From contig NC_087541.1 in assembly GCF_963921805.1 (NCBI RefSeq), positions 672,482-697,839 on the forward strand: 25,358 bases of DNA, in the 5' to 3' direction. How positions within the stretch are numbered: the stretch's first letter is position 1; every line of letters begins with the position of its first letter. The DNA is from Phalacrocorax carbo. Its lineage: Eukaryota. This document shows, piece by piece, positions 2,210-25,358 of the stretch. The notes under the pieces are model-generated. The model saw only the letters and a list, made by a program, of their open reading frames with translations. It did no database searches and had not been told where the DNA came from. The translations under genes and the position numbers were made by a program.

Positions 2210-4650
2210 TGCGCCCAGTGAGGGGGGGTTTGGGGGGCACTGGGGGCGTTTGGGGGGGTCTCAGGGGGGGTTCGGGGGGTCTGAGGGGGCGTTTGGGGCG
2301 TCTGGGGGGGGTGAGGTGGGGGTTTGGGGGGTCTGAGGGGGCGTTTGGGGGGTCTGAGGGGGGGTTTGGGGGTCTGAGGGGGCGTTCGGGGGGTCTGAGG
2401 GGGGGTTCGGGGGGTCTGAGGGGGGGTTCGGGGGTCTGAGGGGGGTTCGGGGGGTCTGAGGGGGGTTCGGGGGTCTGAGGGGGGTTCGGGGGGTCTGAGG
2501 GGGCGTTTGGGGGGTCTGAGGGGGGGTTCGGGGGTCTGAGGGGGGGTTCGGGGGGTCTGAGGGGGCGTTTGGGGGGTCTGAGGGGGGGTTCGGGGGTCTG
2601 AGGGGGGGTTCGGGGGGTCTGAGGGGGCGTTTGGGGGGTCTGAGGGGGGGTTCGGGGGGTCTGAGGGGGTGTTTGGGGGTCTGAGGGGGCGTTTGGGGGG
2701 TCTGAGGGGGGGTTCGGGGGGTCTGAGGGGGGGTTCGGGGGGTCTGAGGGGGGGTTCGGGGGTCTGAGGGGGGGTTTGGGGGTCTGAGGCGGGGTTCGGG
2801 GGGTCTGAGGGGGCGTTCGGGGGGTCTGAGGTGGGGTTCGGGGGTCTGAGGGGGGGTTTGGGGGGTCTGAGGCGGGGTTCGGGGGTCTGAGGGGGGGTTT
2901 GGGGGGTCTGAGGGGGCGTTCGGGGGGTCTGAGGGGGGGTTGGGGGGGTCTGAGGGGGCGTTTGGGGGGTCTGAGGGGGGGTTCGGGGGGTCTGAGGGGG
3001 GTTTGGGGGTCTGAGGGGGCGTTTGGGGGGTCTGAGGGGGGGTTCGGGGGGTCTGAGGGGGGGTTCGGGGGGTCTGAGGGGGCGTTTGGGGGTCTGAGGT
3101 GGGGTTCGGGGGGTCTGGGGGGGGTTCGGGGGTCTGAGGGGGGTTCGGGGGGTCTCAGGGGGCGTTTGGGGGGTCTGGGGGGGGTGAGGTGGGGTTCGGG
3201 GGGTCTGAGGGGGGATTCAGGGGGTCTGAGGGGGCGTTTGGGGCGTCTGAGGGGGGGTTCGGGGGGTCTGAGGGGGCGTTTGGGGGGTCTAAGGGGGGGT
3301 TCGGGGGTCTGAGGGGGGGTTCGGGGGGTCTGAGGGGGGGTTTGGGGGGTCTGAGGGGGGGTTCGGGGGGTCTGAGGGGGGGTTTGGGGGTCTGAGGGGG
3401 CGTTTGGGGGGTCTGAGGGGGGGTTCGGGGGGTCTGAGGGGGGGTTCGGGGGGTCTGAGGGGGCGTTTGGGGGGTCTGAGGTGGGGTTCGGGGGGTCTGG
3501 GGGGGGTTCGGGGTCTGAGGGGGGGTTCGGGGGGTCTCAGGGGGCGTTTGGGGGGTCTGGGGGGGGTGAGGTGGGGTTCGGGGGGTCTGAGGGGGGATTC
3601 ATGGGGTCTGAGGGGGCGTTTGGGGCGTCTGAGGGGGGGTTCGGGGGGTCTGAGGGGCGTTTGGGGGGTCTGAGGGGGGGTGAGGGGGGTCTGAGGGGGG
3701 GTTTGGGGGTCTGAGGGGGGGTTCGGGGGGTCTGAGGGGGGATTCAGGGGGTCTGAGGGGGCGTTTGGGGGGTCTGAGGGGGCGTTGGGGGTCTGAGGGG
3801 GGGTTCGGGGGGTCTGAGGGGGGGTTCGGGGGGTCTGAGGGGGCGTTTGGGGGGTCTGAGGCGGGGTTCGGGGGTCTGAGGGGGGGTTCGGGGGGTCTGA
3901 GGGGGCGTTTGGGGGGTCTGAGGTGGGGTTCGGGGGGTCTGGGGGGGGTTCGGGGGTCTGAGGGGGGGTTCGGGGGGGTCTCAGGGGGCGTTTGGGGGGT
4001 CTGGGGGGGGTGAGGTGGGTTCGGGGGGTCTGAGGGGGGATTCAGGGGGTCTGAGGGGGCGTTTGGGGGGTCTGAGGGGGGTTCGGGGGGTCTGAGGGGG
4101 CGTTTGGGGGGTCTGAGGGGGGTTCGGGGGGTCTGAGGGGGGGGTTCGGGGGTCTGAGGGGGGGTTTGGGGGGTCTGAGGGGGGGTTCGGGGGGTCTGAG
4201 GGGGTGTTTGGGGGGTCTAAGGGGGGGTTCGGGGGTCTGAGGGGGGGTTCGGGGGGTCTGAGGGGGGGTTCGGGGGGTCTGAGGGGGGTTGGGGGGGTCT
4301 GAGGGGGGGTTCGGGGGGTCTGAGGGGGGGTTGGGGGGGTCTGAGGGGGGGGTTTGGGGGGTCTGAGGGGGGGTTCGGGGGGTCTGAGGGGGCGTTTGGG
4401 GGGTCTGAGGGGGCGTTTGGGGGGTCTGAGGGGGGGGTTCGGGGGGTCTGAGGGGGGGTTTGGGGGTCTGAGGGGGGGTTCGGGGGGTCTGAGAGGGGGT
4501 TCGGGGGGTCTGAGGGGGGGTTCGGGGGGTCTGAGGGGGGGTTCGGGGGGTTTGAGGGGGCGTTTGGGGGCTCTGAGGGGGGGTTCAGGGGGTCTGACAG
4601 GGGGTTCGGGGGGTCTCAGGGGCGTTTGGGGGGTCTCGGGGGGGGGTTGG
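2210..4650. repeat. 20-21-bp G-rich minisatellite (GGGGGGTCTGAGGGGGCGTTT / ..GGGGTTC), about 120 copies, filling the HIRIP3 intron
   Basis: visible tandem periodicity; G-runs of 5 or more in every unit. Confidence 0.9.
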
Positions 4651-4849
4651 GAGCAATTTAGGGGATCGCTGGGTATTTAGGAGGGTCTTTAATCCTGGGG
4701 GGGGCTCAGAAGGTGAATTTGGGGGGGCGGGAGGGGACTCGGGGGGGCAGGGGGGGACTCGGGGGGGGGGCACTGGGGGGCTGGGGGGGTATCGCGGGGC
4801 GGGGCCCCGCGGGTGCAGCCTCCCACGCCCCCCCCCCGCCCCCCCGCAG

Positions 4850-5016
4850 GTGTCGGGGCGCGGCGGGGGGGGACCCCCCGGCCCTGCGGCGCCTCAAGGG
4901 GTACCTGCGGGCCTGTGGGGCGCGCCCCAACTACAAGAAGCTCCTGGGGGGCTGCCGCAGCCTGCGCGAGAGGGTCGGGGTGCTGCGGGGGGAGCTGCGG
5001 GCCCTCGGCCTCACCG
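4850..5016 (+). CDS. HIRIP3: HIRIP3 exon: (R)CRGAAGGDPPALRRLKGYLRACGARPNYKKLLGGCRSLRERVGVLRGELRALGLT(G), C-terminal conserved HIRIP3 domain
   Basis: strong acceptor (CCTCCCACGCCCCCCCCCGCCCCCCCGCAG ending at 4849); matches human RLKRYxRACGxxRNYKKLLGSCCSHKERLSILRAELEALGMKG; first of five tandem copies of the G|GTGCGG donor at 5017; phase with neighbouring exons is off by 1 nt. Confidence 0.7.
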
Positions 5017-5340
5017 GTGCGGGGCGGGGGGCTGCGGTGGGGGGCTGCGGGGGGAGCTGCGGGCCCTCGGCCTCACCGGTGCGGGGCGGGGGGCTGCGGT
5101 GGGGGGCGGGAGGGGGGGCTGCGGGGCCCTCGGCCTCACCGGTGCGGGGCGGGGGGCTGCGGTGGGGGGCGGGAGGGGGGGCTGCGGGGGGAGCTGCGGG
5201 CCCTCGGCCTCACCGGTGCGGGGCGGGGGGCTGCGGTGGGGGGCGGGAGGGGGGCTGCGGGGGGAGCTGCGGGCCCTCGGCCTCACCGGTGCGGGGCGGG
5301 GGCTGCGGTGGGGGGGCTACGGTGGGGTGGGAGGGGGCTG
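4988..5340. repeat. 62-74-bp tandem repeat of the HIRIP3 exon 3' end plus splice donor (GGAGCTGCGGGCCCTCGGCCTCACCG|GTGCGGGGCGGGGGGCTGCGGTGGGG), 5 copies; a degenerate sixth copy (donor GT mutated to AT) lies at about 5690-5750
   Basis: direct sequence comparison. Confidence 0.85.
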
Positions 5341-6480
5341 CGGGGGCTGAGAGGGGGAACTTGGGGGGCTACGGTGAGTGGGAGGGGGGATGTGGGGGCT
5401 ACGAGGAGTGGGAGGGGGGATGTGGGGGGCTATGGGGGGTGGGAGGGGGGATATGGGGGACTACGAGGGGTGGGAGGGGGGACGTGGGGGGCTACGGCGG
5501 GTGGGAGGGGGGACGTGGGGGGCTGCGGCGTGTGGAAGGGGGAACTTGGGGGGCTACAGGGGGTGGGAGGGGGAATTTGTGGGGTGGGAGGGGGATTTTG
5601 GGGGGCTACAGGGGGTGGAGGGGGAATTTGTGGGGTGGGAGGGGGGATATGGGGGGCTACGGGGGGTGGGAGGAGGGATGTGGGGGGAGCTGCGGGCCCT
5701 CGGCCTCACCGATGCGGGGCGGGGGGCTGCGGGGGGCGGGAGGGGGGATGTGGGGGGTGACAGGGGGAACTTGGGGGGCTACAGGAAGTGGGAGGGGGGA
5801 TATGGGGGGCTACGGGGGGTGGGAGGGGGGATGTGGGGGGACTACGGGGGGTGGGAGGGGGGACGTGGGGGGCTGCGGCGTGTGGGAGGGGGAACTTGGG
5901 GGGCTACAGGGGGTGGAGGGGGAATTTGTGGCATGGGAGGGGGGCTGTGGGGGGCTACCAGATGTGGGAGGGGGGTTGTGGGGGGTGGGAGGGGGGGATA
6001 TGGGGGGTGGGAGGGGGACTTTGGGGGGGCTACAGGGGGTGGGAGGGGGGGATGTGGGGGTGGGAGGGGGGCTGTGGCAGGGGGCAATTTGGGAGGTGGG
6101 GAGGGAGGATATGGGGCCTACAGGGGGTGGGAGGGGGATTTTGGGGGGCTACAGGGGGTGGAGGGGGAATTTGTGGGGTGGGAGGGGGATTTTGGGGGGC
6201 TACCAGATGTGGGAGGGGGGTTGTGGGGGGTGGGAGAGGGGATATGGGGGGCTACGGGGGGGTGGGAGGGGGGGCTGCGGGGGGCAGGAGGGGACTTTCG
6301 GGTGTGGGAGGGGGCTGGGGGGGATTTGGGGGGTCATCGGGGGGTTTGGGGGGGTCTGCGGGGCGCAGGAGGGGGTTTTGGGGGGGATTTTGAGGGGTTG
6401 GAGGGGCGTTTTGGTGGGCAGGAGGGGGGATTTGGGGGGGCTGGGAGGGGGTTTGGGGGCGGCCTAGAGGGGTCGGGCGG
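5340..6480. repeat. about 30-bp G-rich minisatellite (GGCTACGGGGGGTGGGAGGGGGGATGTGGGG), about 35 copies
   Basis: visible periodicity. Confidence 0.85.
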
Positions 6481-6739
6481 GGTTGGGAGGGGGTTTGGGG
6501 TGCACTGGAGGGGTCACTGGGGGGGGTGGGGGGTCATTTTGGGGTACGGGGGGCATTTTGGGGGAGGGGGGGGGGCTGAAATGGCTTATTCCACACGCTC
6601 GGGGGCGGGGGGGGAGCGATTTGGAGGGGGGGGTCTGAGGGGGCGCTGAATGAGGCTGGGGGTGGGGGGGTGTGGGGGGGGTTACTGGGGGGGGGGTGTG
6701 GCTTTTTGGGGGTGCCTTTGACCCCTCCCCACCCCCCAG

Positions 6740-6839
6740 GACCCCCCCTCTTTGGCTCGCTGCCGGCGCCTCAAACGCCGCCGGGAAGAAGCGGCCGAGC
6801 TGGCGGCGCTCGACGTCGCCAACATCCTCCCCACGCCCG
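6740..6839 (+). CDS. HIRIP3: HIRIP3 exon: DPPSLARCRRLKRRREEAAELAALDVANILPTP(G)
   Basis: acceptor ...CCCCACCCCCCAG ending at 6739 (in-frame TGA at 6719 excludes upstream acceptors); donor G|GTAACG at 6840; matches human TPSLGKCRALKEQREEAAEVASLDVANII. Confidence 0.75.
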
Positions 6840-6975: not shown

Positions 6976-7113
6976 GTCGAACCCGGAGGCGAAACCCGTG
7001 GAACCCCCAAACCCCCCCCGGGGAGAAAATCGGGGGGTCCCCCCCCCCCTCCCCCCCCAGTCGACTGGTCCCGGCTTCGGGGCGTCATTAGCTCCGACGG
7101 CGAGAGCGAGTGA
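6976..7113 (+). CDS. HIRIP3: HIRIP3 terminal exon: (G)RTRRRNPWNPQTPPGE..[frame shift in poly-C]..DWSRLRGVISSDGESE stop (TGA 7111-7113)
   Basis: acceptor CCCACAG ending at 6975, in phase with the previous exon; matches human RPRRRTAWNP..PPGE and the C-terminus PDWSHMRGIISSDGESN; the two conserved blocks are in frames differing by 1 nt across the C11/C8 runs at 7039-7058. Confidence 0.7.
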   Translation, partial: VEPGGETRGTPKPPPGRKSGGPPPPPPPVDWSRLRGVISSDGESE

Positions 7114-7260: not shown

Positions 7261-7445
7261 TTAATACTTGCGCTGGTGAAGAAAAAAACCGGGGGGTCTT
7301 TTTGGGGGGGGGGGGTCGTCTCCTTCCAGCTGGAAAAGGTCCCTCCCCGTCCGGAGAATCTGTTCTTCTAATTTTTTATGGCGTTTCATATCGGATAAAA
7401 CTTTATCGAGGCGCGCCTCCCGCTTCTGCCCGCGGCTGGGGGGGC
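7261..7445 (-). CDS. PAGR1: PAGR1 exon 3 (terminal): (G)[47 protein letters not shown]..[frame shift in C12 run]..LHQRKY stop
   Basis: acceptor CCTCCAG with phase matching exon 2; matches human [39 protein letters not shown]; the conserved C-terminal ...QRKY-stop is reached only in a frame shifted by one nt after the G12 run at +7306-7317; TAA is the complement of 7261-7263. Confidence 0.75.
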
Positions 7446-7554
7446 CTGGAGGGGGGGCACGGCGGGGTTGGAGGCGGCGCCGCCCAGGTTGGGGGTTTCC
7501 CGCCCAAAATGGGGGGGGGGGGTTGGGGAGGGGGTTTGGGGAGGGGGGCCTTAC

Positions 7555-7637
7555 CCGGGGCTCGGCGGCGGTCGATGAGGGAGCTCTTAGGGGCGACGGG
7601 CTCGTCGTCGAAGTCGAACTCGGTGGCGACGGGCGGC
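7555..7637 (-). CDS. PAGR1: PAGR1 exon 2: [28 protein letters not shown]
   Basis: acceptor CCTCCAG (complement of 7638-7644); donor G|GTAAGG (gt is the complement of 7554-7553); matches human [24 protein letters not shown]. Confidence 0.8.
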
Positions 7638-7805
7638 CTGGAGGGGGGAGAGGGGCCTTACCCGGGGGTCGGGGGCGGCGGGGGGCGGCGGGGGGCGGCG
7701 GGGGGCACCATCGGGAGGGGGGTCGCGAGGCGTGAGAGCTGCGGGGGGGGATTCTGGAAGTAAGGAAGCGCGAGGCGGGGAGTCGCGAGGTGGACGAGTC
7801 GTGGA

Positions 7806-9230
7806 GTGAGTGAACCGCCAGGGAGGTCGTCGAGCCGCGAGGGAAATGGCGACCTAAGCCGTGAGGTAAATCGCGAGGGAAATCGCGAGGGAAATCGCGA
7901 GGGAAATCGGGAGGGAAACGGCGAGGGAAATGGCGAGGGAAACGGCGAGGGAAATGGCGAGGGAAATCGGGAGGGAAACGGCGAGGGAAATCGGGAGGGA
8001 AACGGCGAGGGAAATGGCGAGGGAAATCGGGAGGGAAACGGCGAGGGAAACGGCGAGGGAAATGGCGACCTAAGCAGTGAGGTAAATCGCGAGCTAAGCC
8101 ATGAGATAAATCATGAGGTAAATCGCGAGCTAAGCCGTGAGGTAAATCGTGAGGCCGTGAGGTAAATTGTGAGGTAAATCATGAGGTAAATCGTGAGGCC
8201 GTGAGGTAAATTGTGAGGTAAATCATGAGGTAAATCGTGAGGCAAGTCGCGAGCTAAGCCGTGAGATAAATTGTGAAGTCAATCATGAGGTAAATCGCGA
8301 GCTAAGCCATGAGGTAAATTGTGAGGTAAATCGTGAGGTAAATTGTGAGGTAAATCATGAGGTAAATCGTGAGGCCGTGAGGTAAATTGTGAGGTAAATC
8401 ATGAGGTAAATCATGACGCAAGTCGCGAGCTAAGCCGTGAGATAAATTGTGAGGTCAATCATGAGGTAAATCGCGAGCTAAGCCGTGAGGTAAATCATGA
8501 GGTAAATCGCAACCTAAGCCATGAGGTAAATTGTGAGGTAAGCCGTGAGGTAAATTGTGAGGTACATCATGAGGTAAATCGTGAGGCCGTGAGGTAAATT
8601 GTGAGGTAAATCATGAGTTAAATCGTGAGGTAAATCGCGAGCTAAGCCGTGAGGTAAATTGTGAGGTAAATCGTGAGGTAAATCGCGAGCTAAGCCGTGA
8701 GGTAGACTGTGAGGTAAATCGTGAGTTAAATCGTGAGGTAAATCACGAGCTAAGCCGTGAGGTAAACTGTGAGGTAAATCGTGAGGTAAATCGCGACCTA
8801 AGCCATGAGGTAAACTGTGAGGTAAATCGTGAGGTAAATTGTGAGGTAAATCATGAGGTAAATCATGAGGCCGTGAGGTAAATCGTGAGGTAAATCGTGA
8901 GGTAAATCGTGAGGTAAATCGTGAGGTAAATCGTGAGGTAAAGCGTGAGGTAAAGCGTGAGGTAAAGCGTGAGCTAAGCCGTGAGATAAATTGTGAGGCA
9001 AATCATGAGGTAAATCGCAAGCTAAGCCGCGAGGTAAATTGTGAGGTACATCGCGAGCTAAGCTGTGAGGTAAATCGCGAGGTAAGCCGTGAGGTAAACT
9101 GTGAGGTAAGCCGTGAGATAAATTGTGAGATAAATCGTGAGCTAAGCCGTGAGCTAAGCCGTGAGGTAAATGGCGAGGTAAATGGCGACCTAAGCCGTGA
9201 GGTAAACAGCGAGGTAAAACGACAACATTT
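7806..9230. repeat. 12-bp minisatellite (CGAGGGAAATGG / GTGAGGTAAATC), about 118 copies, in PAGR1 intron 1; followed by an A-rich tract at 9235-9275
   Basis: visible periodicity; the unit is a multiple of 3, which explains the long REGNGEGN pseudo-ORF. Confidence 0.9.
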
Positions 9231-9308
9231 CCCCTAAAAAAAAAAACCACGCCAAAAAAAAAAAAAAAAAAAAAGGGTGGGTGGGATGTGGGGAATTTTT
9301 GTCTCTTA

Positions 9309-9669
9309 CTTCTCCTCCTCCTCCTCCTCGCTCTCGGGCTGCCCGGCCGAGCGCGGCTCCTCCTCGCTGTCGGGCTCCGGGGTGGGCGCGCGCCGGGGCA
9401 GCGGGACGTGCCGCAGCGGGAGGCTGCCCTGGTCGGCGATGAGCTCGTAGAGCCGCCGGATATCGGCGGGAGGGGGAAGCCATCCCTCGGGGGGTTCCCC
9501 TTCCTCCTCGCTCCAAGGAACCCCCCAGTCCTCCTCCTCTTCCTCGCCGAGGGGCGAGGGGGGCGGGCGGCGGGCGGCTCTCGCCGGCGCTGGCGGCCGG
9601 GGGGTCGGTGACGGCGAGGGAGCGGAGCCCCGACGTCACCTCCGACGCGTCCTCCGGCGGCGCCGTCAT
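9309..9669 (-). CDS. PAGR1: PAGR1 (PA1) exon 1: [22 protein letters not shown]...[78 protein letters not shown]
   Basis: reverse-strand translation matches human PAGR1 ([58 protein letters not shown]); ATG is the complement of 9667-9669; donor AAG|GTAAGA (gt is the complement of 9308-9307); an internal 1-nt frame inconsistency lies near 9540-9600. Confidence 0.78.
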
Positions 9670-9789
9670 GGCCGCCTGCGGGGGGCGGGCCGGTGTCACA
9701 CAGCGGCCCCCAGAAACGCCGGGATTCGCCCCAAAAAATGGGCATGGGGCTAAAGGTGATCCCGGTGTCGCCGTGGCCACCAAGGGGGG

Positions 9790-10880
9790 TCCTGAGGTGG
9801 TGCTGCCGCCCTCAAGGCCACCGTTTTAATGTCTAAGGTGGTCCTGGTGACCCCCTTGGCCACCAAATTGAGCCCCCCAGGGCCACCCTGGTGTCCCCAC
9901 GGCTACCAAATTCTCCCTGTAGCCACCAAATTGAGCCCTGAGGCAATCTGACCACCTACAATGGCCACTGTTTTAAGGTCTAAGGTGGTCCTGGTGACCC
10001 CGTGGCCACCTAATTCAGCTTTGAGGTGATCCTTGTGGCCACCAAATTGAGCCCAAGGCCACCCCGGTGTCCCCACGGCTACCAAATTCTCCCTGTGGCC
10101 ACCAAATTGAGCCCTGAGGCAATCTGGCCACCTACAATGGCCACCGTTTTAAGGTCTAAGGTGGTCCTGGTGACCCTGTGGCCGCCAAATTGAGCCCTCA
10201 GGTCACCAAATTCTCCCTGTGGCCACCAAATTGAGCCCTGAGGCGATCAGCCACCTACAATGGCCACCGTTTTAAGGTCTAAGTTAGTCTTGGTGACCCC
10301 GTGGCCACCAAATTCAGCCCTGAGGTGATCCTTGTGGCCACCAAATTGAGCCCTCAGGCCACCAAATTGAGCCCTGAGGTGAACCCGATGACCCCGTGGC
10401 CACCAAGGTGAGCACTGAGGTGGTCCTGCTGCCCTCAAGGCCACCGATTTAAGGTCTAAGGTGGTCCTGGTGTCCCCGTGGCCACCAAATTCAGCCCCGA
10501 GGCCACCAAATTGAAGCCTGAGGCGATCGGGCCACCTACAATGGCCACCGTTTTAAGGTCTAAGGTGGTCCTGGTGACCCCGTGGCCACCTAATTCAGCT
10601 TTGAGGTGATCCCTGTGGCCACCAAATTGAGCCCCGAGGTGGTCCTGGTGACCCCGTGGCCACCAAATCGAGCCCCAAGGCCACCCCAGTGTCCCCGTGG
10701 CCACCAAGGTGGGTCCTGAAGTGGTCCTGCCACCTCAAGGCCACCATTTAAAGGTCTAACGTGGTCCTGGTGTCCCCATGGCCACCAAATTGAGGCCTGA
10801 GGCCACCAAATTGTCCCTGTGGCCACCAAGTTGAGCCCTGAGGCGATCGGGCCACCTACAATGGCCGCCATTTTAACGCC
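9790..10880. repeat. complex higher-order satellite (about 270-bp units built from GGCCACCAAATTGAGCCCTGAGG and CTACAATGGCCACCGTTTTAAGGTCTAAGGTGGTCCTGGTGACC), about 4 copies
   Basis: repeated blocks visible at 9960, 10130, 10250, 10530 and 10850. Confidence 0.75.
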
Positions 10881-10899
10881 TGAGGTGATCCCGCCAGCC

Positions 10900-11360
10900 C
10901 TGAGCCCCCCCCCACCCCCCCGGCCGCCATCTTGGGTCCCGGCGCCGCCATTTTGAACCCCGACGCCGCCCCCCCTCCCCCTCCCAAACCCCGCCCCCGC
11001 CATTTCCAGCCCGTCACGCACCCCCAGCCCCCCCCCCCCCGCACCCCCCGCACCCGCTACCCCCGCACCGCCCCCCCCCCGCGTCCCCTCCCCGCACTCA
11101 CCCTCCTCGGGCTCCCCCGGGACCGGCGAGGTCAGGGACGGGACCCTCAGCCCCCGCCCGCCATTTTTTCTTCCCGCTCCCGCCTTCCACCGGCTCCCGA
11201 CTGCGCATGCGCGGGGGGAGCAACACGCTTGCGCAGGGCGGCGCCGGTGTGGTGTGCGCATGCGCGGCGCCGGAAGACTCCGCGGTCCCGCCCCTTTGCC
11301 CACGTGTTTGTGCGAGGCCGCACCCTCTTCCGCCCACGGCGCATGCGCGGGGGGAGGAAG
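10900..11360. promoter_or_regulatory. CpG-island promoter module: two YY1 consensus sites (GCCGCCATCTTG 10923-10934, GCCGCCATTTT 10944-10954) plus three perfect NRF1 palindromes GCGCATGCGC (11213-11222, 11266-11275, 11339-11348)
   Basis: exact matches to established YY1 and NRF1 consensus motifs; lies 1.2-1.7 kb upstream of the PAGR1 ATG on the minus strand. Confidence 0.55.
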
Positions 11361-11629
11361 TCGGTGTGTAACCGTTAATTAAGATGGATATTTTTTGCTT
11401 TATTGCTCTGAAATCCAAGCGAATGGGCCCAAAATTAGGGTGGGGGGACGGTCGGGGGCCTCTCCTCGGTGGGCGCGGCCCTTAAAGAGGTAAAAGGCGT
11501 GGGTGGGGCCTGCCTTAAAGGGGACGTCCGTGCCCCAACCGTAATAAAAATGAATAATTCATAAGTAAAAGAAATCAAGTAGTGTCTAAATAAAGTAATT
11601 AATGAGCCCGGGTGGAAGAAAGCTCGGGA

Positions 11630-11870
11630 GGAGGTGGCCCCACCTTATCGCCGCTTTAAGAGATGGTGTTGCCTCTTTAGAGAACGGGTGGGCCCCACCT
11701 TATCGCCGCTTTAAGAGATGGTGTTGCCTCTTTAGAGAACGGGTGGGCCCCACCTTATCGCCGCTTTAAGAGATGGTGTTGCCTCTTTAGAGAACGGGTG
11801 GGCCCCACCTTATCGCCGCTTTAAGGTACGGCGCTGCCCCTTTAAGAGGAGGCGGGCCCGCCGTGTCGCC
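11630..11870. repeat. 57-bp x4 tandem repeat (GGGTGGGCCCCACCTTATCGCCGCTTTAAGAGATGGTGTTGCCTCTTTAGAGAAC) inside an AT-rich island
   Basis: four near-identical copies. Confidence 0.85.
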
Positions 11871-11879
11871 GCTTTAAGG

Positions 11880-12760
11880 CCGCCCCGCCCCGCCCCGCCC
11901 CGCACTGATTGGCTCACTTGGTGTAACAGACGCAGGCGCCGCCAATCAGAGGGAGGAGAAGGAGGAGCGTGGCCAAGGTGGTTCTGCCGCCAGCCAATTG
12001 CCGGCTGGGACCTGCACGCTGCGCCACTGGGCGGCCAATCGGAAAGAGGGGCGGGAGGGCGAGGTCAGGGGAGCGGGAGAACCCCGAACACCCGCCCCGG
12101 GACCCCCTCATGGGCCTGCCCTAAGCCACGCCCACAGAGGGGCTTGGTCCCGCCCACAGAAGTTTGGCCCGCCCCTTCACGTGGCCCCGCCCCGTTGTGG
12201 CCCCGCCCCGCCTGCCAGTGGCCACGCCCATCGCCCTCTAGACCCCACCCACCGCAATGCAGACCGCACCCACAGCCCCTAGACCCCGCCCCTTTCTGCA
12301 CCCCGCCCTCCATTAAAAGGCTGCCTGGTTTTGGCCCCGCCCACAACCCTCAGACCCCGCCCCTTCGCCCAGACACCGTCCAGGTTTTAACCCCGCCCCT
12401 TCCCCGGAAGCCCCGCCCCCAGCCGGGCTCTGGAAGCGGCGAGGAGGGGCGGGGCGTTGCCAAGGGGATGGGGCCCCGCCGACCAATCGCCGCTCGGGCA
12501 GGCACCGGCTCCACCCCCTCCCCTTCAGAATCAGCCAATCGGCTGCGCGTTGGGGGCGGCGCTACGGTCACGTGGGCGGCGCGGGGCCGCTCTAGGCCGC
12601 TGGAGGAACGCGGCTCTATGGTCTGCGGGGCTCCACAGCGCTCCCCCATCCCCCCACCTCCCGCCTCAGCCGCCCCCCACCGCGTCGGCTCAGCAGGGAC
12701 GTCACGGGAGGAGGCGGTGACGTCACGGGGGACGTCACCCTCCCCCCCCCCCAGCCGATG
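11880..12760. promoter_or_regulatory. TATA-less promoter-type block: CCAAT boxes at 11907, 11942, 11994, 12035, 12483 and 12536; about 15 Sp1 GC boxes (CCCCGCCCC, 11881-12420); E-box CACGTG; three tandem CRE/ATF half or full sites (GGGACGTCAC / GTGACGTCAC / GGGACGTCAC, 12697-12740)
   Basis: direct motif matches; orientation and position are consistent with TAOK2 upstream and 5'UTR control and/or divergent transcription with PAGR1. Confidence 0.5.
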
Positions 12761-13260: not shown

Positions 13261-13479
13261 GCCGCTTTGGGGTTAAAGCCCGGCTTTTTGGGTATCCCGG
13301 AGCCGCCCCTCCCCCCCCTCCCGGGAAGGAGGGATTCGGGGGGAGGTGGGGGCCCCCCCCCGGAGCTGGAGCCGCCCGGGGGGGGGGGGCGGACGAGGGG
13401 GGCTGGGCGACCCCCGCGGCCCGACGGAGCCGGAGCCGGAGCCGGTGAGGGGCGACCGGGGGCTTGGGGGGGGCCAGGG

Positions 13480-15500
13480 CCGGCGGCACTTGGGGGGCAG
13501 CGGCACTTGGGGGGCAGAGCCGGGGCCCTTGGGGCACTTGGGGCTCGGTAGGACTTGGGGGGCAGAGCCGGGGCCCTTGGGGCACTTGGGGCTCGGTAGG
13601 ACTTGGGGGGCAGAGCCGGGGCCCTTGGGGCACTTGGGGGTCGGTAGGACTTGGGGGGCAGAGCCGGGGTACTTGGGGCTCGGTAGGACTTGGGGGGCAG
13701 AGCCGGGGCCCTTGGGGCACTTGGGGCAGTTTAGGACTTGGGGGGCAGAGCCGGGGCCCTTGGGGCACTTGGGGCTCGGTAGGACTTGGGGGGCAGAGCC
13801 GGGGCCCTTGGGGCACTTGGGGCTCGGTAGGACTTGGGGGGCAGAGCCGGGGCCCTTGGGGCACTTGGGGGTCGGTAGGACTTGGGGGGCAGAGCCGGGG
13901 CCCTTGGGGCACTGGTGGGGCAGACTCTGGGTCTCTTGGGGGGCAACGCTTGGGTCACTTATGGGATCTGTGGGGCACTTGGGGGGGGACCCTGGGGCAA
14001 CTGTGGGGCAGAGCCTAGATCTTAAGTTCTCTTTAGCACTTGTGCTAAAGCACTTGGGGGGCAGCGCTTGGGTCTCTTGGGGGGCAGCGCTTGGGTCTCT
14101 TGTGGGATCTGTGGGGCAGAGCGTGGGGCACTTGGGGGGGCCCCATGGTCCCTTTTGGGAGAGAGCCTGAACCTTGGTCACTTGTGGGGCAGAGCCGGGG
14201 GCACTTGGGGGGCAGCAAGGCTTGTGGGGCAGAGCCTGGACCTTGAGTTCTCTTTAGCACTTGTGGGGCGGAGCGTGGGGCACTTGTGGGGCAGCGGGGC
14301 TTGGGGGGAGGGCCTGGACCCCAGGGACTCTTGTGGGGCAGCGCTTGGGTCGCTTGTGGATTCTGTGGGGCAGAATGTGGGTCACTTGGGGGGCAGAGCC
14401 TGAACCTCTGGAGCACTTGTGGGGCAGGGTGTGGGTCCCTTGGGGGCAGCGTGTGGGTCTCTTGTGGGGCAGTGCTTGGGTAGCTTGTGGGATCTGTGGG
14501 ACCGAGTGTGGGTCACTTGGGGGGCAGAGCCTGGGGCCCTGGGTCACATGTGGGGCAGGGTGTGGGTCACGTGTGGGGCAGGGCCTGTACCCTTGGGTCA
14601 GTTGTGGGGCAGGGCGTGGGTCACTTGGGGGGCAGAGCCTGTACCCCTGGGTCAGTTGTGGGGCAGGGCGTGGGTCACTTGGGGGGCAGAGCCTGTACCC
14701 CTGGGTCAGTTGTGGGGCAGGGCGTGGGTCACGTGTGGGGCAGAGCCTGAACCTTGTGTCACGTGTGGGGCAGGGCGTGGGTCACGTGTGGGGCAGGGCC
14801 TGAACCTTGGGTCACTTGTGGGGCAGGGTGTGGGTCACGTGTGGGATCTGTGGGGCTGAGTGTGGGTCACTTGGGGGGCAGAGCCTGGGGCCTTGGGTCA
14901 CTTGGGGGTCAGAGCCTGGTTCAGTTGTGGGGCAGGGTGTGGGTCACGTGTGGGGCAGAGCCTGTATCCCTGGGTCAGTTGTGGGGCAGAGCCTGCTTCA
15001 GTTGTGGGGCAGGGCCTGTATCCCTGGGTCACTTGGGGGGCAGAGCCTGCTTCAGTTGTGGGGCAGGGCCTGTATCCCTGGGTCACTTGGGGGGCAGAGC
15101 CTGCTTCAGTTGTGGGGCAGAGCCTGTATCCCTGGGTCACTTGGGGGGCAGAGCCTGGTTCAGTTGTGGGGCAGGGCGTGGGTCCCTTGTGGGGCAGAGC
15201 CCGAACCTTGGGTCACTTGGGGGGCAGGGCCTGGGTCACTTGGGGGGCAGAGCCTGCTTCAGTTGTGGGGCAGGGCATGGGTCACGTGTGGGGCAGAGCC
15301 CGAACCTTGGGTCACTTGGGGGGCAGGGCCTGGTTCAGTTGTGGGGCAGGGTGTGGGTCACGTGTGGGGCAGAGCCCGAACCTTGGGTCACTTGGGGGGC
15401 AGGGCCTGGTTCAGTTGTGGGGCAGGGCGTGGGTCACGTGTGGGGCAGAGCCCGAACCTTGGGTCACTTGGGGGGCAGGGCGTGGGTCACGTGTGGGGCA
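13480..15500. repeat. about 60-bp minisatellite family (CTTGGGGCACTTGGGGCTCGGTAGGACTTGGGGGGCAGAGCCGGGGCC, then GGGTCACGTGTGGGGCAGAGCCTGAACCTTGGGTCACTTGTGGGGCAGGGCGTG), about 30 copies
   Basis: visible periodicity. Confidence 0.85.
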
Positions 15501-15638
15501 GAGCCTGCACCCAAGCCACCCCCCCCGCCAGCAGCAGCACTCGGGTGACCCGTGGGGCCCCCCTGCGCCCCGTGGGGCAGCCCTGGCTGACGCGCGGCTC
15601 TGCCCCACGGCCGCTGTGGGGCGGGGGCAGGCGCCGCC

Positions 15639-15758
15639 ATGCCCTGGGGACGCCCGCGGGGCCCCCCCGGGGCCGGGCTCTTCCTGCAGGGGGACCCCGA
15701 GCGGCTCTTCGGGGACCTGCGCGAGATCGGCCACGGCAGCTTCGGCGCCGTCTACTTC
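15639..15758 (+). CDS. TAOK2: TAOK2 coding exon 1: start codon in gccgccATGc Kozak context, [40 protein letters not shown], kinase subdomain I (Gly loop)
   Basis: ATG at 15639; translation matches the TAO kinase N-terminus ([22 protein letters not shown] in human); phase-0 donor GTGAGT at 15759. Confidence 0.88.
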
Positions 15759-15764
15759 GTGAGT

Positions 15765-17290
15765 GCCCCACAAGTGCCCCCCCGCGCCCCACGGGTGCCC
15801 CCACGCACACCCCCGAGCCCCACAAGTGCCCCCACAAACACCCCGTGCCCCACGGGGGCCCCCCCGCGCCCCACAAGTGCCCACCACACACACCATGTGC
15901 CCCACAGAGGCCCACCCGTGCCCCACAAGTGCCCCCACAAACACCCCGTGCCCCACGGGGGCCCCCCCGCGCCCCACAAGTGCCCCCACACACACCCCCG
16001 GGTGCCCCCCTGCTCCCCACAAGTGCCCTCACAAACACCCGGTGCCCCCCTGCTCCCCACAAGTGCCCCCACAAACACCCCGTGCCCCACGGGGGCCCCC
16101 CCGCGCCCCACAAGTGCCCGCCACACACACCATGTGCCCCACGGGGGCCCACCCGTGCCCCACAAGTGCCCCCACACACACCCCCGGGTGCCCCCCTGCT
16201 CCCCACAAGTGCCCCCACACACACCCCCGTGCCCCCCGGATGCCCCCCTGCGCCCCACAAGTGCCCCACACACACACCCCGCGCCCCACGGGGGCCCCCC
16301 CCACGGCCCCCCCCATGCCCCCACACACACCCCGTGCCCCACGGGTGCCCCCCCGTGCCCCCACTCACACCCCCGCGCCCCACGGGTGCCCCCCACACAC
16401 ACCCCGCGCCCCACGGGTGCCCCCACATGGGTGCCTCATAGGTGCCCCCCTGCGCCCCATGAGTGCCCCTCCGCGCCCCATGAGTGTCCCCACACCCCCC
16501 TGAGCCCCACAAGTGCCCCCACAAACACCCCGTGCCCCATGGGGGCCCCCCCGCGCCCCACAAGTGCCCCCACACACACCCCCGGGTGCCCCCCTGCTCC
16601 CCACAAGTGCCCCCACAAACACCCGGTGCCCCCCTGCTCCCCACAAGTGCCCCCACAAACACCCCGTGCCCCACGGGGGCCCCCCCGCGCCCCACAAGTG
16701 CCCCCACACACACCCCCGGGTGCCCCCCTGCTCCCCACAAGTGCCCCCACAAACACCCGGTGCCCCCCTGCTCCCCACAAGTGCCCCCACAAACACCCCG
16801 TGCCCCCCGGATGCCCCCCTGCGCCCCACAAGTGCCCCCCACACACACCCCGCGCCCCACGGGGGCCCCCCCACGGCCCCCCCCATGCCCCCACACACAC
16901 TCCGTGCCCCACGGGTGCCCCCCCCCCACCCCCCACAAGTGCCCCCCCACACACCCCACACCTCACGGGTGCCCCTCCCGCGCCCCACGGGTGCCCCCCC
17001 GTGCCCCCACTCACACCCCCGCGCCCCACGGGTGCCCCCACACACCCCGCGTCCCACAAGTGCCCCCACATGGGTGCCTCATAGGTGCCCCCCCGCGCCC
17101 CATGAGTGCCCCACACCCCCCCACACACCCCCGTGTCCCACGGGTGCCCCCCCCACACACACCCCGTGCCCCACAGGTGCCCCCACACACACTCTGCGCC
17201 CCACGGGTGCCCTCAAACACACCCCCGTGCCCCACAAGTGCCCCCTACACACCCCCCGCGCCCCCCAAGTGCCCCCCGCGCCCCCCGTCT
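15765..17290. repeat. about 50-bp C-rich minisatellite (CCCCACAAGTGCCCCCACAAACACCCCGTGCCCCACGGGGGCCCCCCCGCG) filling TAOK2 intron 1
   Basis: visible periodicity. Confidence 0.85.
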
Positions 17291-21202: not shown

Positions 21203-21515
<313 letters not shown>

Positions 21516-21524
21516 GTGCGCAGA

Positions 21525-23340
21525 GACCCCCCCCCCCAAATCCCCCCCGCCCCCCCACCCCGCCCCCCAACCCCCCGCCCCCCCCCCGCGCCCCCAAACC
21601 CCCCCCCCGCCCCCCAAAACCTCCCCAAACCCGCCCCCTGGGGCCCCAAACTGCCTCAGAATGGCCCCAAAACCCCCCCCAAACCACCCTCCAGACCCCC
21701 AAACCCCCCCCCCAAACCCCCCCCGCGCCCCCCCAAACCCCCCCGGGCCCCCCAAACCCCCCCGGCCCCCCCCAAACCCCCCCCGCGCCCCCAAAACCTC
21801 CCGAACCCACCCTCGAATGCCCCAAACTGCCTCCGAATGGCACCAAACTGCCTCAAAATCCCTCCCCAAAACCCCCCCAGACCCCCCCCAAATCGCACCC
21901 TGAAACCCCCCCGGCCCCCCCAAACCTCCCTGAGCCCCCCCCCAGCCCCCCCCGGCCCCCCCAAACCTCCCCAAAACCCCCCCCCAGAATCCCCCAAACT
22001 CCCTCAAAATTCCCCCAAAGTCCCTCCCAACCCCTCCCCCACCCCCCAGACCCCTCCCCCACCCCACAGGCCCCTCCAGACCCCTCCCCACCCCCCAGAC
22101 CCCTCCCCCACCCCACAGGCCCCTCCCAGACCCCTCCCCCACCCCCCAGACCCCTCCCCACCCCCCAAACCTCTCCCAGACCCCTCCCCCACTCCCCAGA
22201 CCCCTCCCCCACCCCCCAAACCCCTCCCGGACCCCGCCCCCACCCCCCGGCTGCCCCTCTCAGACCCCTCCCCCACCTCCCAGACCCCTCCCCCACCCCC
22301 CAAACCTCTCCCGGACCCCTCCCCCACCCCCCGGGCCCCTCCCGGACCCCTCCCCCACCCCCAGACCCCTCCCGGACCCCTCCCCCACCCCCCAAACCCC
22401 TCCCAGACCCCTCCCCCACCCCCCGGCCGCCCCTCTCAGACCCCTCCCCCACCTCCCAGACCCCTCCCCCACCCCCCAAACCCCTCCCGGGCCCCTCCCC
22501 CACCCCCCAGACCCCTCCCCCACCCCCCGGGCCCCTCCCCCACCCCCCAGACCCCTCCCGGACCCCTCCCCCACCCCCGAAACCCCTCCCGGACCCCTCC
22601 CCCACCCCCAGACCCCTCCCAGACCCCTCCCCCACCCCCAGACCCCTCCCCCACCCCCCAGACCCCTCCCCCACCCCCAGACCCCTCCCGGACCCCTCCC
22701 CCACCCCCAGACCCCTCCCAGACCCCTCCCCAGACCCCTCCCGGACCCCTCCCCCGCCCCCCAGACCCCTCCCCCACCCCCCAGACCCCTCCCGGACCCC
22801 TCCCCCACCCCCCAGACCCCTCCCGGACCCCTCCCCCACCCCCCAGACCCCCTCCCCCACCCCCCAGACCCCTCCCGGACCCCTCCCCCACCCCCCGGGC
22901 CCCTCCCCCACCCCCCAGACCCCTCCCCCAGACCCCTCCCAGACCCCTCCCCCACCCCCCAGACCCCTCCCCCACCCCCCAGACCCCTCCCGGACCCCTC
23001 CCCCACCCCCCGGGCCCCTCCCCCAGACCCCTCCCCCACCCCCCAAACCCCTCCCGGACCCCTCCCCCACCCCCCGGGCCCCTCCCCCACCTCCCAGACC
23101 CCTCCCCCAGACCCCTCCCAGACCCCTCCCCCACCCCACAGGCCCCTCCCAGACCCCTCCCCCACCCCCCAGACCCCTCCCCCACCCCCCGGGCCCCTCC
23201 CCCACCTCCCAGACCCCTCCCCCAGACCCCTCCCAGACCCCTCCCCCACCCCACAGGCCCCTCCCAGACCCCTCCCCCACCCCCCAGACCCCTCCCCCAC
23301 CCCCCGGGCCCCTCCCCCACCCCCCGGCCGCCCCTCCCCC
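21525..23340. repeat. C-rich 20-33-bp minisatellite (CCCCTCCCCCACCCCCCAGACCCCTCCCGGAC), about 70 copies, filling TAOK2 intron 8
   Basis: visible periodicity. Confidence 0.85.
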
Positions 23341-23345
23341 CGCAG

Positions 23346-23427
23346 GTCGGAGCTCTTCCGCCAGTTCGTGGCCTCCTGCCTGCAGAAGCCGCCCCCCCAG
23401 CGCCCCCCCTCCCGCCTCCTCCTGCAG
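23346..23427 (+). CDS. TAOK2: TAOK2 exon 9: (W)SELFRQFVASCLQKPPPQRPPSRLLLQ
   Basis: acceptor CCGCAG ending at 23345; donor CAG|GTAACG at 23428; matches [27 protein letters not shown]. Confidence 0.88.
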
Positions 23428-23526
23428 GTAACGCCCCTCCCCCACCCGCCCCCGCCCCCCGCCGGGGCCCCTCCCCCGCGCCCCCTCCCCCAACGCCGCC
23501 CCCCTGCCCCTGCCCCTCCCCCACAG

Positions 23527-23706
23527 CACCCCTTCCTGCTCCGCCCGCGCCCCCCCGGCGTCGTCGCCCGCCTCCTGCGCCGCGCCCGCGCCGCCGCCCC
23601 TCCCCCACGCCGCCGCGGGCTGGGGGGGCTGCTCCGCGGGCCCGATCCTGGCGGCGGCGACGATGACGACGACGACGAGGAGGATGATGACGACGACGAG
23701 GAGGAG
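23527..23706 (+). CDS. TAOK2: TAOK2 exon 10: HPFLLRPRPPGVVARLLRRARAAAPPPRRRGLGGLLRGPDPGGGDDDDDDEEDDDDDEEE (post-kinase segment plus acidic tract)
   Basis: acceptor CCACAG ending at 23526; donor GAG|GTGACG at 23707; aligns positionally with [21 protein letters not shown]...EAPEEEEE, but the central part is strongly diverged. Confidence 0.7.
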
Positions 23707-23759
23707 GTGACGAAGGCTCCTGCCCTGCGGGGGGGTTTGGGGGGGGGGCGTTTAGGGTA

Positions 23760-24610
23760 CCGTGGGGCGGCTCCCAGGGGTCTCGGGGGTGTCCCTGGGG
23801 GTCCCTGTCACCTCCCTGGGGGTCCCTGGGGGTCCCTGTCCCCTCCTGGGGGTCCCTGGGGGTCCCTGTCACCTCCCTGGGGGTCCCTGGGGGTCCCTGG
23901 GGGTCCCTGTCCCCTCCCTGGGGGTCCCTGGGGGTCCCTGTCCCCTCCCGGGGGGTCCCTGGGGTCCCTGTCACCTCCCTGGGGGTCCCTGGGGGTCCCT
24001 GTCCCCTCCCTGGGGGGTCCCTGGGGGTCCCTGTCACCTCTCTGGGGGTCCCTGGGGGTCCCTGTCCCCTCCCACGGGGTCCCTGGGGGTCCCTGTCACC
24101 TCCCTGGGGGTCCCTGGGGGTCCCTGGGGGTCCCTGTCCCCTCCCTGGGGGGTCCCTGGGGGTCCCTGTCCCCTCCCTGGGGGTCCCTGGGGGTCCCTGT
24201 CACCTCCCGGGGGGTCCCTGGGGGTCCCTGTCACCTCCCTGGGGGTCCCTGGGGGTCCCTGGGGGTCCCTGTCCCCTCCCTGGGGGGTCCCTGGGGGTCC
24301 CTGTCCCCTCCCGGGGGGTCCCTGGGGGTCCCTGTCCCCTCCCACGGGGTCCCTGGGGGTCCCTGTCCCCTCCCTGGGGGGTCCCTGGGGGTCCCTGGGG
24401 GTCCCTGTCCCCTCCCTGGGGGGTCCCTGGGGGTCCCTGGGGGTCCCTGTCCCCTCCCTGGGGGGTCCCTGGGGGTCCCTGGGGGTCCCTGTCCCCTCCC
24501 TGGGGGTCCCTGTCCCCTCCCTGGGGGTCCCTGGGGGTCCCTGTCACCTCCCGGGGGGTCCCTGGGGGTCCCTGTCCCCTCCCTGGGGGGTCCCTGGGGG
24601 TCCCTGTCAC
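23760..24610. repeat. about 30-bp G-rich repeat (GGGGGTCCCTGGGGGTCCCTGTCCCCTCCCTG), about 28 copies, in TAOK2 intron 10
   Basis: visible periodicity. Confidence 0.85.
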
Positions 24611-24679
24611 CCCCTGGAGCTCTGGGGGATCCCCGTGTCCCCCCCCGTGACCCCCCTGACCCCCCCCCCCCACTGGCAG

Positions 24680-24871
24680 GAGGCGGAGCCGTCGGGCAGC
24701 ACCGAGCGCAGCCATTGGCCGCCCAGCGCGTCCGTCAGCGCCTCCAGCAGCGGCACCAGCCTGGGCGACGCCTCCGAGGAGGAGGAGGAGGGGCGGGGGG
24801 AGGGGGAGGAAGGCCCCGAGACCCCCCCGCTGCAGGACGGGGAGACCCTGGGCGCCCCCCACGGCCCCGAC
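24680..24871 (+). CDS. TAOK2: TAOK2 exon 11: EAEPSGSTERSHWPPSASVSASSSGTSLGDASEEEEEGRGEGEEGPETPPLQDGETLGAPHGPD (Ser-rich/acidic linker)
   Basis: acceptor GGCAG ending at 24679; donor GAC|GTGAGC at 24872; aligns with human AEPYMHRAG..SMSISASSQSSSVNSLADASDNEEEE..EGPEAREM. Confidence 0.8.
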
Positions 24872-25161
24872 GTGAGCTGGGGGGGGAGGGGAGGGGGGAG
24901 GGGCACCCTGGGGGGGGGAGGGGCGGGTTGGGGGGGGCGGGGCACCCCGGGGGGGGATGGGGGGGGAGGGGCACTGGGAGGGGTTGGGGGGACATGGGGG
25001 GGGGGGGGAGGGGGTGGCACCGCAAGGGGGGGTGGGGGGATGCGGGGGGGGGGATGGGGGGCTCGGCGCCGGCCTATCAGCATCGGGGATGTTGGTGGCG
25101 CAGCTCCGCCCCCCGCGGGGCGGGGCCTGACCCACACACCCCCCATTTCTTCCCCCCGCAG

Positions 25162-25290
25162 CCCCCCGACGGCCTCGGCGCCCCCCCGGCCCCGCCCCCG
25201 CCCCTCCCCCCGCTGGAGGAGGGCCTGAGGGCGGAGCTCGCCCAGCTCCGCCCCTGCCCCGCCCCCGAGAGCCCGCCCCAGGCCGACGAG
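25162..25290 (+). CDS. TAOK2: tentative TAOK2 exon 12: PPDGLGAPPAPPPPLPPLEEGLRAELAQLRPCPAPESPPQADE
   Basis: good acceptor (CCCCCCGCAG ending at 25161) and donor (GAG|GTGGGA at 25291); open frame in phase with exon 11; only weak Pro-rich similarity to the TAOK2 linker. Confidence 0.45.
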
Positions 25291-25358
25291 GTGGGAGGGG
25301 CTTCGGAGGGTGTGGCTGGGTGGGAGGGGCTTGCGTGGGTGTGGTCGGGGAGCCACGC

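Follow-up and report, generated by a model that had tools for sequence, protein, structure and literature searches.

Why does the end of a coding exon, together with its 5' splice site, stand five times in a row across the boundary with the following intron, and which of the resulting donors would be expected to yield the messenger? This question is raised by a stretch of 25,358 nucleotides of Phalacrocorax carbo DNA (NC_087541.1, positions 672,482 to 697,839; referred to here as the window and numbered from its first base), in which the exon in question belongs to a gene whose predicted product identifies it as HIRIP3, the gene of a CHZ-domain histone chaperone. An initial annotation, made from the letters alone, had described the repeated boundary as an array of competing donors that gave rise to the intronic minisatellite downstream. 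The analysis reported here confirms the repeated boundary and leads us to a different account of its origin and its consequences. We consider it likely that the array is a lineage-specific instance of exon stuttering, that is, a young, neutral-to-slightly-harmful variable number tandem repeat (VNTR) that spans the exon-intron boundary and carries silent decoy donors.

A repeat search of the window returned a single family of six copies with spacings of 62, 63, 74, 73 and 423 bp. The 29-nt core of this family (exon end plus GTGCGGGG...), expressed as the pattern GCCCTCGGCCTCACCGRTGCGGGGCGGGG, was matched exactly at 5001, 5063, 5126, 5200, 5273 and 5696, on the + strand in all six cases, whereas 100 dinucleotide shuffles gave 0 matches. 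These exact matches bear out the five tandem copies and the four spacings between them that had been reported from the initial reading. Tandem Repeats Finder (TRF) assigned periods of 62, 74 and 137 to the interval 4977-5315. In copies 1-5 the donor GT follows ..CACCG at 5017, 5079, 5142, 5216 and 5289, and the sixth copy was found, as had been noted, to have lost it, reading AT instead of GT at 5712-5713. The repeated block does comprise exon end, donor and intron, as proposed, but its exon part is longer than the 30 nt first given: the unit alignment traces exon homology back to 4977, over 40 nt that include a single T/G mismatch, and from 4983 onward the match is perfect (34 nt). The intronic part of the unit measures 22-28 nt.

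Unit 1 (4977-5038, + strand) spans the exon-intron boundary and holds the ancestral donor, CCG|GTGCGG, at 5016|5017, as placed by the unit alignment and by blastn of the exon against the window. It is followed on the same strand by unit 2 (5039-5101), unit 3 (5102-5175), unit 4 (5176-5248) and unit 5 (5249-5310), with decoy donors at 5078|5079, 5141|5142, 5215|5216 and 5288|5289, offset from donor 1 by +62, +125, +199 and +272 nt, respectively; unit 5 merges gradually into a 31-bp minisatellite. When exon 4850-5016 was used as the blastn query, it matched 5039-5078 (97.5% over 40 nt), 5176-5215 and 5249-5288 with 68.9 bits each, 5101-5141 with 44.6 bits (85% over 41 nt) and 5679-5711 with 56.3 bits (97% over 33 nt), and every match stopped at the equivalent of exon base 5016 and then ran on into GTGCGGGGCGGGGGGCTGCGG. 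The last of these matches belongs to the sixth, older exon-end copy (5679-5735, + strand), whose donor is inactivated and which has 31-bp minisatellite units on both sides. Units 3 and 4 carry an additional 12-mer, CGGGAGGGGGGG, and unit 3 is without the 12-nt CTGCGGGGGGAG segment.

The 9-mer CCG|GTGCGG is the same at all five donors and matches 6/9 consensus positions; identity around the five sites extends over at least 24 nt upstream and at least 20 nt downstream. The offsets of donors 2-5 equal 2, 2, 1 and 2 modulo 3, in agreement with the proposal that the copies fall in different frames. The 62/63 and 74/73 length differences, as well as one G5 versus G6 difference, fall in G runs, and because G runs are unreliable in this assembly the decoy phases are certain only to ±1. 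A second GT (GCG|GTGGGG) was observed 20 nt after each exon-derived donor, at 5037, 5099, 5162, 5236 and 5308, so that the array offers ten candidate donors, not five. Two further ideas were rejected. The array has a predicted RNA fold no more stable than those of shuffled sequences (z = -1.86), and a structure-based idea for the array was dropped because of this unremarkable fold. A coding reading was also set aside: frame 3 is open from 4662 to 6464, an openness that stems from the 62% G content, and the homologues are without extra residues at the junction.

The source of the copies is the third from last coding exon of HIRIP3 (exon 5; 4850-5016, + strand; acceptor cag| at 4847-4849), which was located by tblastn with owl HIRIP3, encodes ..DPPALRRLKGYLRACGARPNYKKLLGGCRSLRERVGVLRGELRALGLT(G) and ends in a phase-1 donor; its three-frame translation contains ..LRRLKGYLRACGARPNYKKLLGGCRSLRERVGVLRGELRALGLT(G). 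A search of 5.8 billion protein sequences returned five hits only, all of them HIRIP3 or unnamed orthologues, four avian and none transcriptome-derived. The best hit was HIRIP3 X2 of the little owl (Athene noctua) at 79% identity, and the others came from passerines and a turtle; a cluster look-up found no alternative owl HIRIP3 isoform. The next exon (6740-6839, + strand; (G)PPSLARCRRLKRRREEAAELAALDVANILPTP(G)), placed by Pfam, orthologues and the frame table, contains the beginning of the CHZ motif, and the last coding exon (6976-7113, + strand) reads GRTRRRNPWNP...VDWSRLRGVISSDGESE*. The peptide of exons 6 and 7 matched Pfam CHZ (PF09649) with 30.6 bits against a cut-off of 23.3 (E = 2.2e-7), a score that required the longer conceptual C-terminus. 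Pfam returned no match for the peptide of exon 4850-5016 alone or for that of the K/E-rich exon. The owl hit and the CHZ match uphold the gene name given in the initial annotation. The large K/E-rich HIRIP3 exon (1130-1990) is itself built of tandem modules of 153-199 bp encoding ..TKRLVKNGVKKGKIKTEPKKDKKPLKNGAKRGKIESEEEEE.., a coding repeat expansion within an exon.

Comparison with orthologous loci indicated that a single boundary copy is the ancestral condition. In a cuckoo (Phaenicophaeus) the exon end, ..GTGCTGCGGGGGGAGCTGCGTGCCCTCGGCCTCAACG|GTGGGT, is present in a single copy collinear with copy 1, and blastn of this exon end against the cuckoo's own intron gave no match. Exon 4850-5016 is collinear with the cuckoo exon, with 83% DNA identity and the shared end ..CTCGGCCTCAACG|GTG. 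The ground-tit intron contains no exon-derived copy, and the boundary there is likewise single. Because cuckoo and ground tit carry one copy, the five-copy array is derived and lineage-specific. Donor 1 is orthologous to the sole cuckoo donor (..GAGCTGCGTGCCCTCGGCCTCAACG|GTGGGT) and to the junction in the owl protein, ..LQALGLTG|PPSLARCRRL.., and owl, cuckoo, sparrow, ground tit and turtle share a junction G|xPSL of equal length. Exon 4850-5016 is thus a genuine exon, and its first donor has a positional counterpart in the owl protein as well as in the DNA of cuckoo, sparrow and ground tit.

The initial annotation had suggested that such loci would date the duplication, and they do so as a bound. 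The best DNA matches among the retrieved species were to penguin PAGR1 (75-86%), and TAOK2 protein identities were 73-79%; since no close species was retrieved, the array can be dated only to the time after its lineage separated from cuckoos and passerines. No HIRIP3 was found in the loci of parrot (reached via TAOK2), penguin, kagu, Nicobar pigeon or Savannah sparrow (via PAGR1), because these contigs are short or have a different gene order. In the Ural owl (Strix uralensis) locus, the G-rich intron turns to unrelated sequence ~500 bp upstream of the CHZ exon, at ~11200-11240 (9200-9240 on the reverse complement), and exon 5 is missing there; this break is probably an assembly collapse or a misjoin in the repeat.

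In the saltmarsh sparrow (Ammospiza caudacuta), the same boundary and donor of HIRIP3 were found duplicated in tandem in the same intron. The segment 11234-11599 of the sparrow locus recurs at 11615-11988 with 82% identity and a period of ~381 bp, giving only two copies, in contrast to the five copies at 62-74 bp in the window. The duplicated block consists of 43 nt from the exon end, the GT and intron, and lies in a G/T-rich, repeat-filled intron; the second copy retains the GT and has a 2-nt insertion in its exon-derived part. Each species' intronic copy resembles its own exon, which argues that the sparrow and window duplications are independent, or else that the copies have been homogenised separately in each lineage. 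The same exon boundary would thus have been captured independently in two bird lineages, which points to a mutational bias, the exon-end motifs resembling the intronic repeat, rather than to function.

A functional explanation of the array would hold that it is maintained by selection, its U1-binding sites and G runs forming a splicing enhancer for a rather weak donor 1 or, in a variant, acting as a U1- or G4 (G-quadruplex)-dependent brake on transcription or on premature polyadenylation. The independent duplication of the boundary in unrelated birds, a donor that meets only 6/9 consensus positions and the G-rich sequence directly after each site all agree with such a role. However, a single site serves the same exon in cuckoo and ground tit, the number and structure of the units are irregular, the GT has been lost in the oldest copy, the predicted RNA structure is ordinary, and mutational bias in introns filled with repeats accounts for the recurrence just as well (PMC12954441). 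We therefore regard a selected cis-element as very improbable.

The array has a described counterpart in exon stuttering, reported on chicken dot chromosomes for 236 introns of 115 genes (Hron et al. 2026, Genome Biol Evol, PMC12954441). In that phenomenon, exon parts of 20-187 nt (median 36), with their source at the exon border, recur in 1-44 copies (median 4) over a median span of 1,751 bp, the type example being PHF8 intron 18 (PMC12954441). Introns affected in this way also differ in length and copy number among individuals. The screen that revealed it used the blastn ceiling of shuffled introns, 42.1 bits, as its threshold (PMC12954441). When the same type of screen was applied to 16 exon segments of the window, only exon 4850-5016 was flagged (44.6-68.9 bits). 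None of the other 15 has a copy of its own edge in the adjacent intron, and their few non-self matches are short GAG or low-complexity stretches located elsewhere. In the window, as in chicken, the edge of a coding exon and its splice site are copied in imperfect tandem into an adjacent intron of GC-rich simple repeats (TRF intervals 4977-5315 and 5333-6572), the source lies within 1 base of the exon border, the splice site is inside the copied block, and the exon itself is intact. The copied exon part (33-41 nt) and the copy number of five lie within the published ranges. The window differs in that it comes from a bird other than chicken (its TAOK2 is only 73% identical to that of chicken) and in its small span: the array covers ~330 bp, and one further copy lies at +700 bp. 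The chicken study does not name HIRIP3, nor do those of its supplements that were examined (PMC12954441). The signs of a dot chromosome in the window are indirect, namely 70.7% GC, repeat-filled introns, and the neighbours PAGR1 and TAOK2 of the 16p11.2 synteny group, of which another member, ALDOA, is on chicken chromosome 38 (PMC12954441). We conclude that the array is an additional case of an already described repeat instability, in a new gene, HIRIP3, of a non-chicken bird.

Regions of this kind are difficult to assemble, and the array could in principle have been created or mis-sized during assembly, the true copy number of the boundary being one or some other number. The region is 77% GC and G4-dense, homopolymer errors are present in the assembly, and avian dot chromosomes are sequenced to lower depth and with lower accuracy (bioRxiv 10.1101/2025.10.17.683159). 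Nevertheless, the units are non-identical: 12 nt are inserted in some and a 12-nt segment is absent from one, and the sixth copy has diverged and has flanks of its own. The whole array of ~330 bp is also far shorter than a long read. Moreover, a like structure has been verified by raw nanopore reads in chicken (PMC12954441), and the sparrow provides an independent example at the same exon. An artefactual array is, in our judgement, very unlikely.

How the array arose was examined in the context of the intron. The initial annotation had derived the intronic minisatellite from duplication of the boundary; the boundary has indeed been amplified in tandem, but the minisatellite is the older of the two. 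The remaining intron is filled by a G-rich minisatellite of 21/31/62 bp (GGGGGCTACGGGGGGTGGGAGGGGGAACTTG and variants; 5333-6572, + strand, delimited by TRF), and canonical G4 motifs reach a density of 21.5 per kb on the sense strand of the intron. The cuckoo intron is also filled with related G-rich repeats (GGGGGGCTAC.GG..GGGAGGGGG..), and blastn of the window minisatellite against the orthologous cuckoo intron scored 91.5 bits, compared to at most 44.6 for shuffles. Because the cuckoo has these repeats without the exon piece, the minisatellite predates exon capture. The intronic half of the repeat unit is a variant of the G-rich minisatellite motif, and the exon edge was thus recruited into an intron already prone to repeats. 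Two occurrences of the motif GCTGCGGGG(G) lie in the exon end (GTGCTGCGGGGGGAGCTGCGGG), and the first intronic repeats contain it as well (GGGGGGCTGCGGTGGGGGGCTGCGGGGGG). Mispairing between such motifs, by slipped-strand replication or unequal exchange, would duplicate the stretch between them, donor included, and the G4 density of the intron is consistent with replication-associated instability.

Alignment of the intron to itself revealed a second tier, which goes beyond the earlier description. A higher-order tandem duplication of ~423 bp (5259-6106, + strand) pairs 5259-5678 with 5682-6106 at 78% identity (E = 6e-94), and took along a copy of the exon end and ~370 bp of the intronic minisatellite. 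This alignment indicates that copy 6 is part of the older ~423-bp duplication and that units 1-5 represent a later, nearly identical amplification. The ~423-bp duplication would accordingly have come first, and the proximal copy would then have been amplified in small units. The change of GT to AT in the oldest copy fits simple decay.

A pre-mRNA transcribed from this locus would carry five identical CCG|GUGCGG donors, and the expected outcome can be judged from human genes. Minisatellites whose first unit lies across an exon-intron boundary are known in F7 (intron 7, IVS7), IFI6, CBS, LMNB2 and PDGF (PMC1557585). In F7 IVS7, splicing relies exclusively on the most upstream site, and the identical pseudo-sites downstream, although functional, stay silent (Borensztajn et al. 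2006, PMC1557585). The 37-bp VNTR of F7 intron 7 and the array share an authentic donor followed at regular spacing by identical pseudo-donors (4-8 in F7). The five units of the window run head to tail with unit 1 across the boundary, and their pseudo-sites do not differ in sequence from the authentic donor. Both genes have rather weak, G-rich donors (UGG|gugggu in F7, CCG|gugcgg in the window), and use of a pseudo-site retains intron sequence. The second GT of each window unit, GCG|GTGGGG, resembles the authentic F7 donor UGG|GUGGGU. The two systems differ in that the F7 unit has 4 nt of exon and a 37-bp period, compared to 34-40 nt and 62-74 bp in the window, and in that donor usage was established by experiment in F7 and is predicted here. 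On the basis of the F7 precedent, and because the orthologous junction ..LTG|PPSL.. corresponds to donor 1, this most upstream donor is expected to make the functional mRNA and to dominate. The decoys would be silent or used at a low level, donors 2 and 3 contributing little if anything. The competition among duplicated donors claimed in the initial annotation is, on these grounds, probably overstated.

Conceptual splicing was performed with homopolymers corrected to the lengths found in orthologues. Under these conditions donor 1 gave the conserved protein, whereas donors 2-5 added 62, 125, 199 and 272 nt, shifted the frame and lost the CHZ histone-binding motif. Transcripts from the decoy donors would escape nonsense-mediated decay because termination falls in the last exon. 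That the decoys shift the frame and remove the CHZ motif suggests that the array is neutral to mildly deleterious rather than a designed regulator.

Several points weigh against exon stuttering with silent decoys as the full account. The expected donor usage is judged from precedents, and these are not uniform. In IFI6 (6-16) intron 2 and CBS intron 13, as in the window, a minisatellite beginning at the exon edge carries repeated copies of the donor, and in those two genes the first two pseudo-sites are used constitutively beside the authentic one (PMC1557585), so that silence of the decoys is not guaranteed. The in-frame unit length of IFI6 is not found in the window, where the unit is not a multiple of 3 (±1 per unit, given the G runs), and with these offsets a comparable use of pseudo-sites would frameshift the CHZ motif. 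The copy number and unit lengths are taken from a single assembly and one haplotype. Finally, and beyond anything in the initial annotation, donor 1 is out of frame as assembled: joined in phase 1 to the only acceptor (AG 6738-6739), it leaves the CHZ exon out of frame, reading ..LTGPPLFGSLPAPQ.. with loss of the motif, while donors 2, 3 and 5 preserve the CHZ frame and read ..SASPDPPSLARCRRLKRRREEAAELAALDVANIL... We infer that homopolymer miscalls are probably responsible.

This attribution rests on the pattern of frame breaks along the gene. As assembled, the HIRIP3 frame is interrupted by at least five well-supported one-base breaks, each of them one extra base in a homopolymer. Two, A6 at 1372 and A7 at 1581, were found by comparing the repeated K/E-rich modules among themselves. 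A G8 run at 4865-4872 (+ strand) shifts the frame within exon 5, where owl and cuckoo read VSG(RG)GDPP, requiring G7. The C7 run at 6742-6748 has one base too many for the conserved phase-1 junction, the junctions of Strix, cuckoo, sparrow and ground tit all being in phase 1, and in the last coding exon the C runs at 7039-7058 show a further apparent +1 relative to Strix and owl. A sixth possible break at 1040-1075 (runs 1040-1047 and 1069-1075) is ambiguous. The TAOK2 exons of the same window are in frame, including one with two C7 runs. The one-directional excess in homopolymers points to consensus error in a poorly covered GC-rich region, not to natural decay, and the frame breaks are probably a systematic consensus error of the assembly.

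Were the extra C at 6742-6748 real, the array could instead rescue the frame: donors 2, 3 or 5, or the second GT at 5036|5037, would then be functional and would restore the CHZ frame with an insertion of 7 to 90 residues rich in Gly, Ala and Arg. The assembled sequence, in which donor 1 loses CHZ, donors 2, 3 and 5 keep its frame and frame 3 is open throughout the array, reads in favor of this possibility. An open frame is, however, expected in sequence of 62% G, and the five or more breaks in HIRIP3 are all single extra homopolymer bases, which suggests an assembly or polishing artefact. Furthermore, splicing from donors 2, 3 or 5 would leave the frame broken in exon 5 (by G8) and in the last exon, and owl, cuckoo, sparrow, ground tit and turtle share the same-length junction. 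Rescue of a genuine frameshift is thus highly unlikely. In its specific form, the donor of copy 2, 3 or 5 (phase 0 as assembled) would have replaced the ancestral phase-1 donor, a scenario to which we assign hardly any probability. If it were true, the CHZ frame would be restored at the price of a new Gly/Ala-rich protein segment, and the locus would represent a natural splice-site duplication compensating a frameshift.

The same breaks, if real in this species, could also mark HIRIP3 as a decaying pseudogene, in which an array of splice sites would be without consequence. Gene loss is common on dot chromosomes (PMC12954441), and the frame is broken several times as assembled. Against this, the conserved frames are without in-frame stops, the product is 79% identical to that of owl and the CHZ exon 94% identical to that of Strix, the splice sites are all intact, and all breaks are +1 changes in homopolymers, unlike the spectrum of natural decay. 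Decay of the gene is accordingly extremely unlikely, and exon stuttering with silent decoy donors is retained as the preferred reading.

With its five identical donors, spaced 62-74 nt apart in G-rich surroundings, the array constitutes a natural test bed for 5' splice-site choice and an avian counterpart of F7. It also presents an annotation hazard, since a gene finder may choose the wrong donor. Together, the donor array and the homopolymer miscalls help explain why avian HIRIP3 is so rarely annotated (five proteins among the 5.8 billion sequences, four of them avian).

Other repeats of the window were recorded alongside the array. The preceding HIRIP3 intron (2219-4651) consists almost entirely of a 21-bp G-rich minisatellite, TGAGGGGGGGTTTGGGGGGC, in ~117 copies with a higher order of 42/62 bp; many of its units contain GTGAGG donor-like motifs, and it has 22.7 G4 motifs per kb. 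The window is of vertebrate and not of prokaryotic character, and its + strand is strongly G-rich up to ~9 kb. An Rfam scan of the whole window gave no match. Downstream, PAGR1 lies on the minus strand (7264-9680), tail to tail with HIRIP3. The HIRIP3 stop (7111-7113) and the PAGR1 stop (7261-7263, minus strand) are ~150 bp apart, and from this arrangement the 3' untranslated regions of the two genes probably overlap; the arrangement is common to the sparrow, ground-tit, cuckoo and Ural-owl loci. A PAGR1 intron (7860-9218) holds a 12-bp minisatellite, CGTGAGGTAAAT, in ~115 copies, which reads ATTTACCTCACG on the PAGR1 strand and each of whose units, read on the + strand, comes close to the 5' splice-site consensus (GAG|GTAAAT). 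This repeat is not derived from a PAGR1 exon edge, the donor there being GAGAAG|GTAAGA at 9309|9308. An intergenic tandem array at 9857-10891, with periods of 123/176/300 bp and 21-mers of the GGCCACCAAATTGAGCCC type, is unlike the G-rich intronic repeats in composition. TAOK2 occupies the + strand, with exons from 15654 to beyond 23427. Its 5' region and introns (13300-17250 and 21500-25358) contain long arrays of 40-120-bp repeats, and a Pro-rich open frame of 1,141 codons (PPPPRPLPDPSPTPQTP.. repeats) was observed on the + strand of the TAOK2 region.

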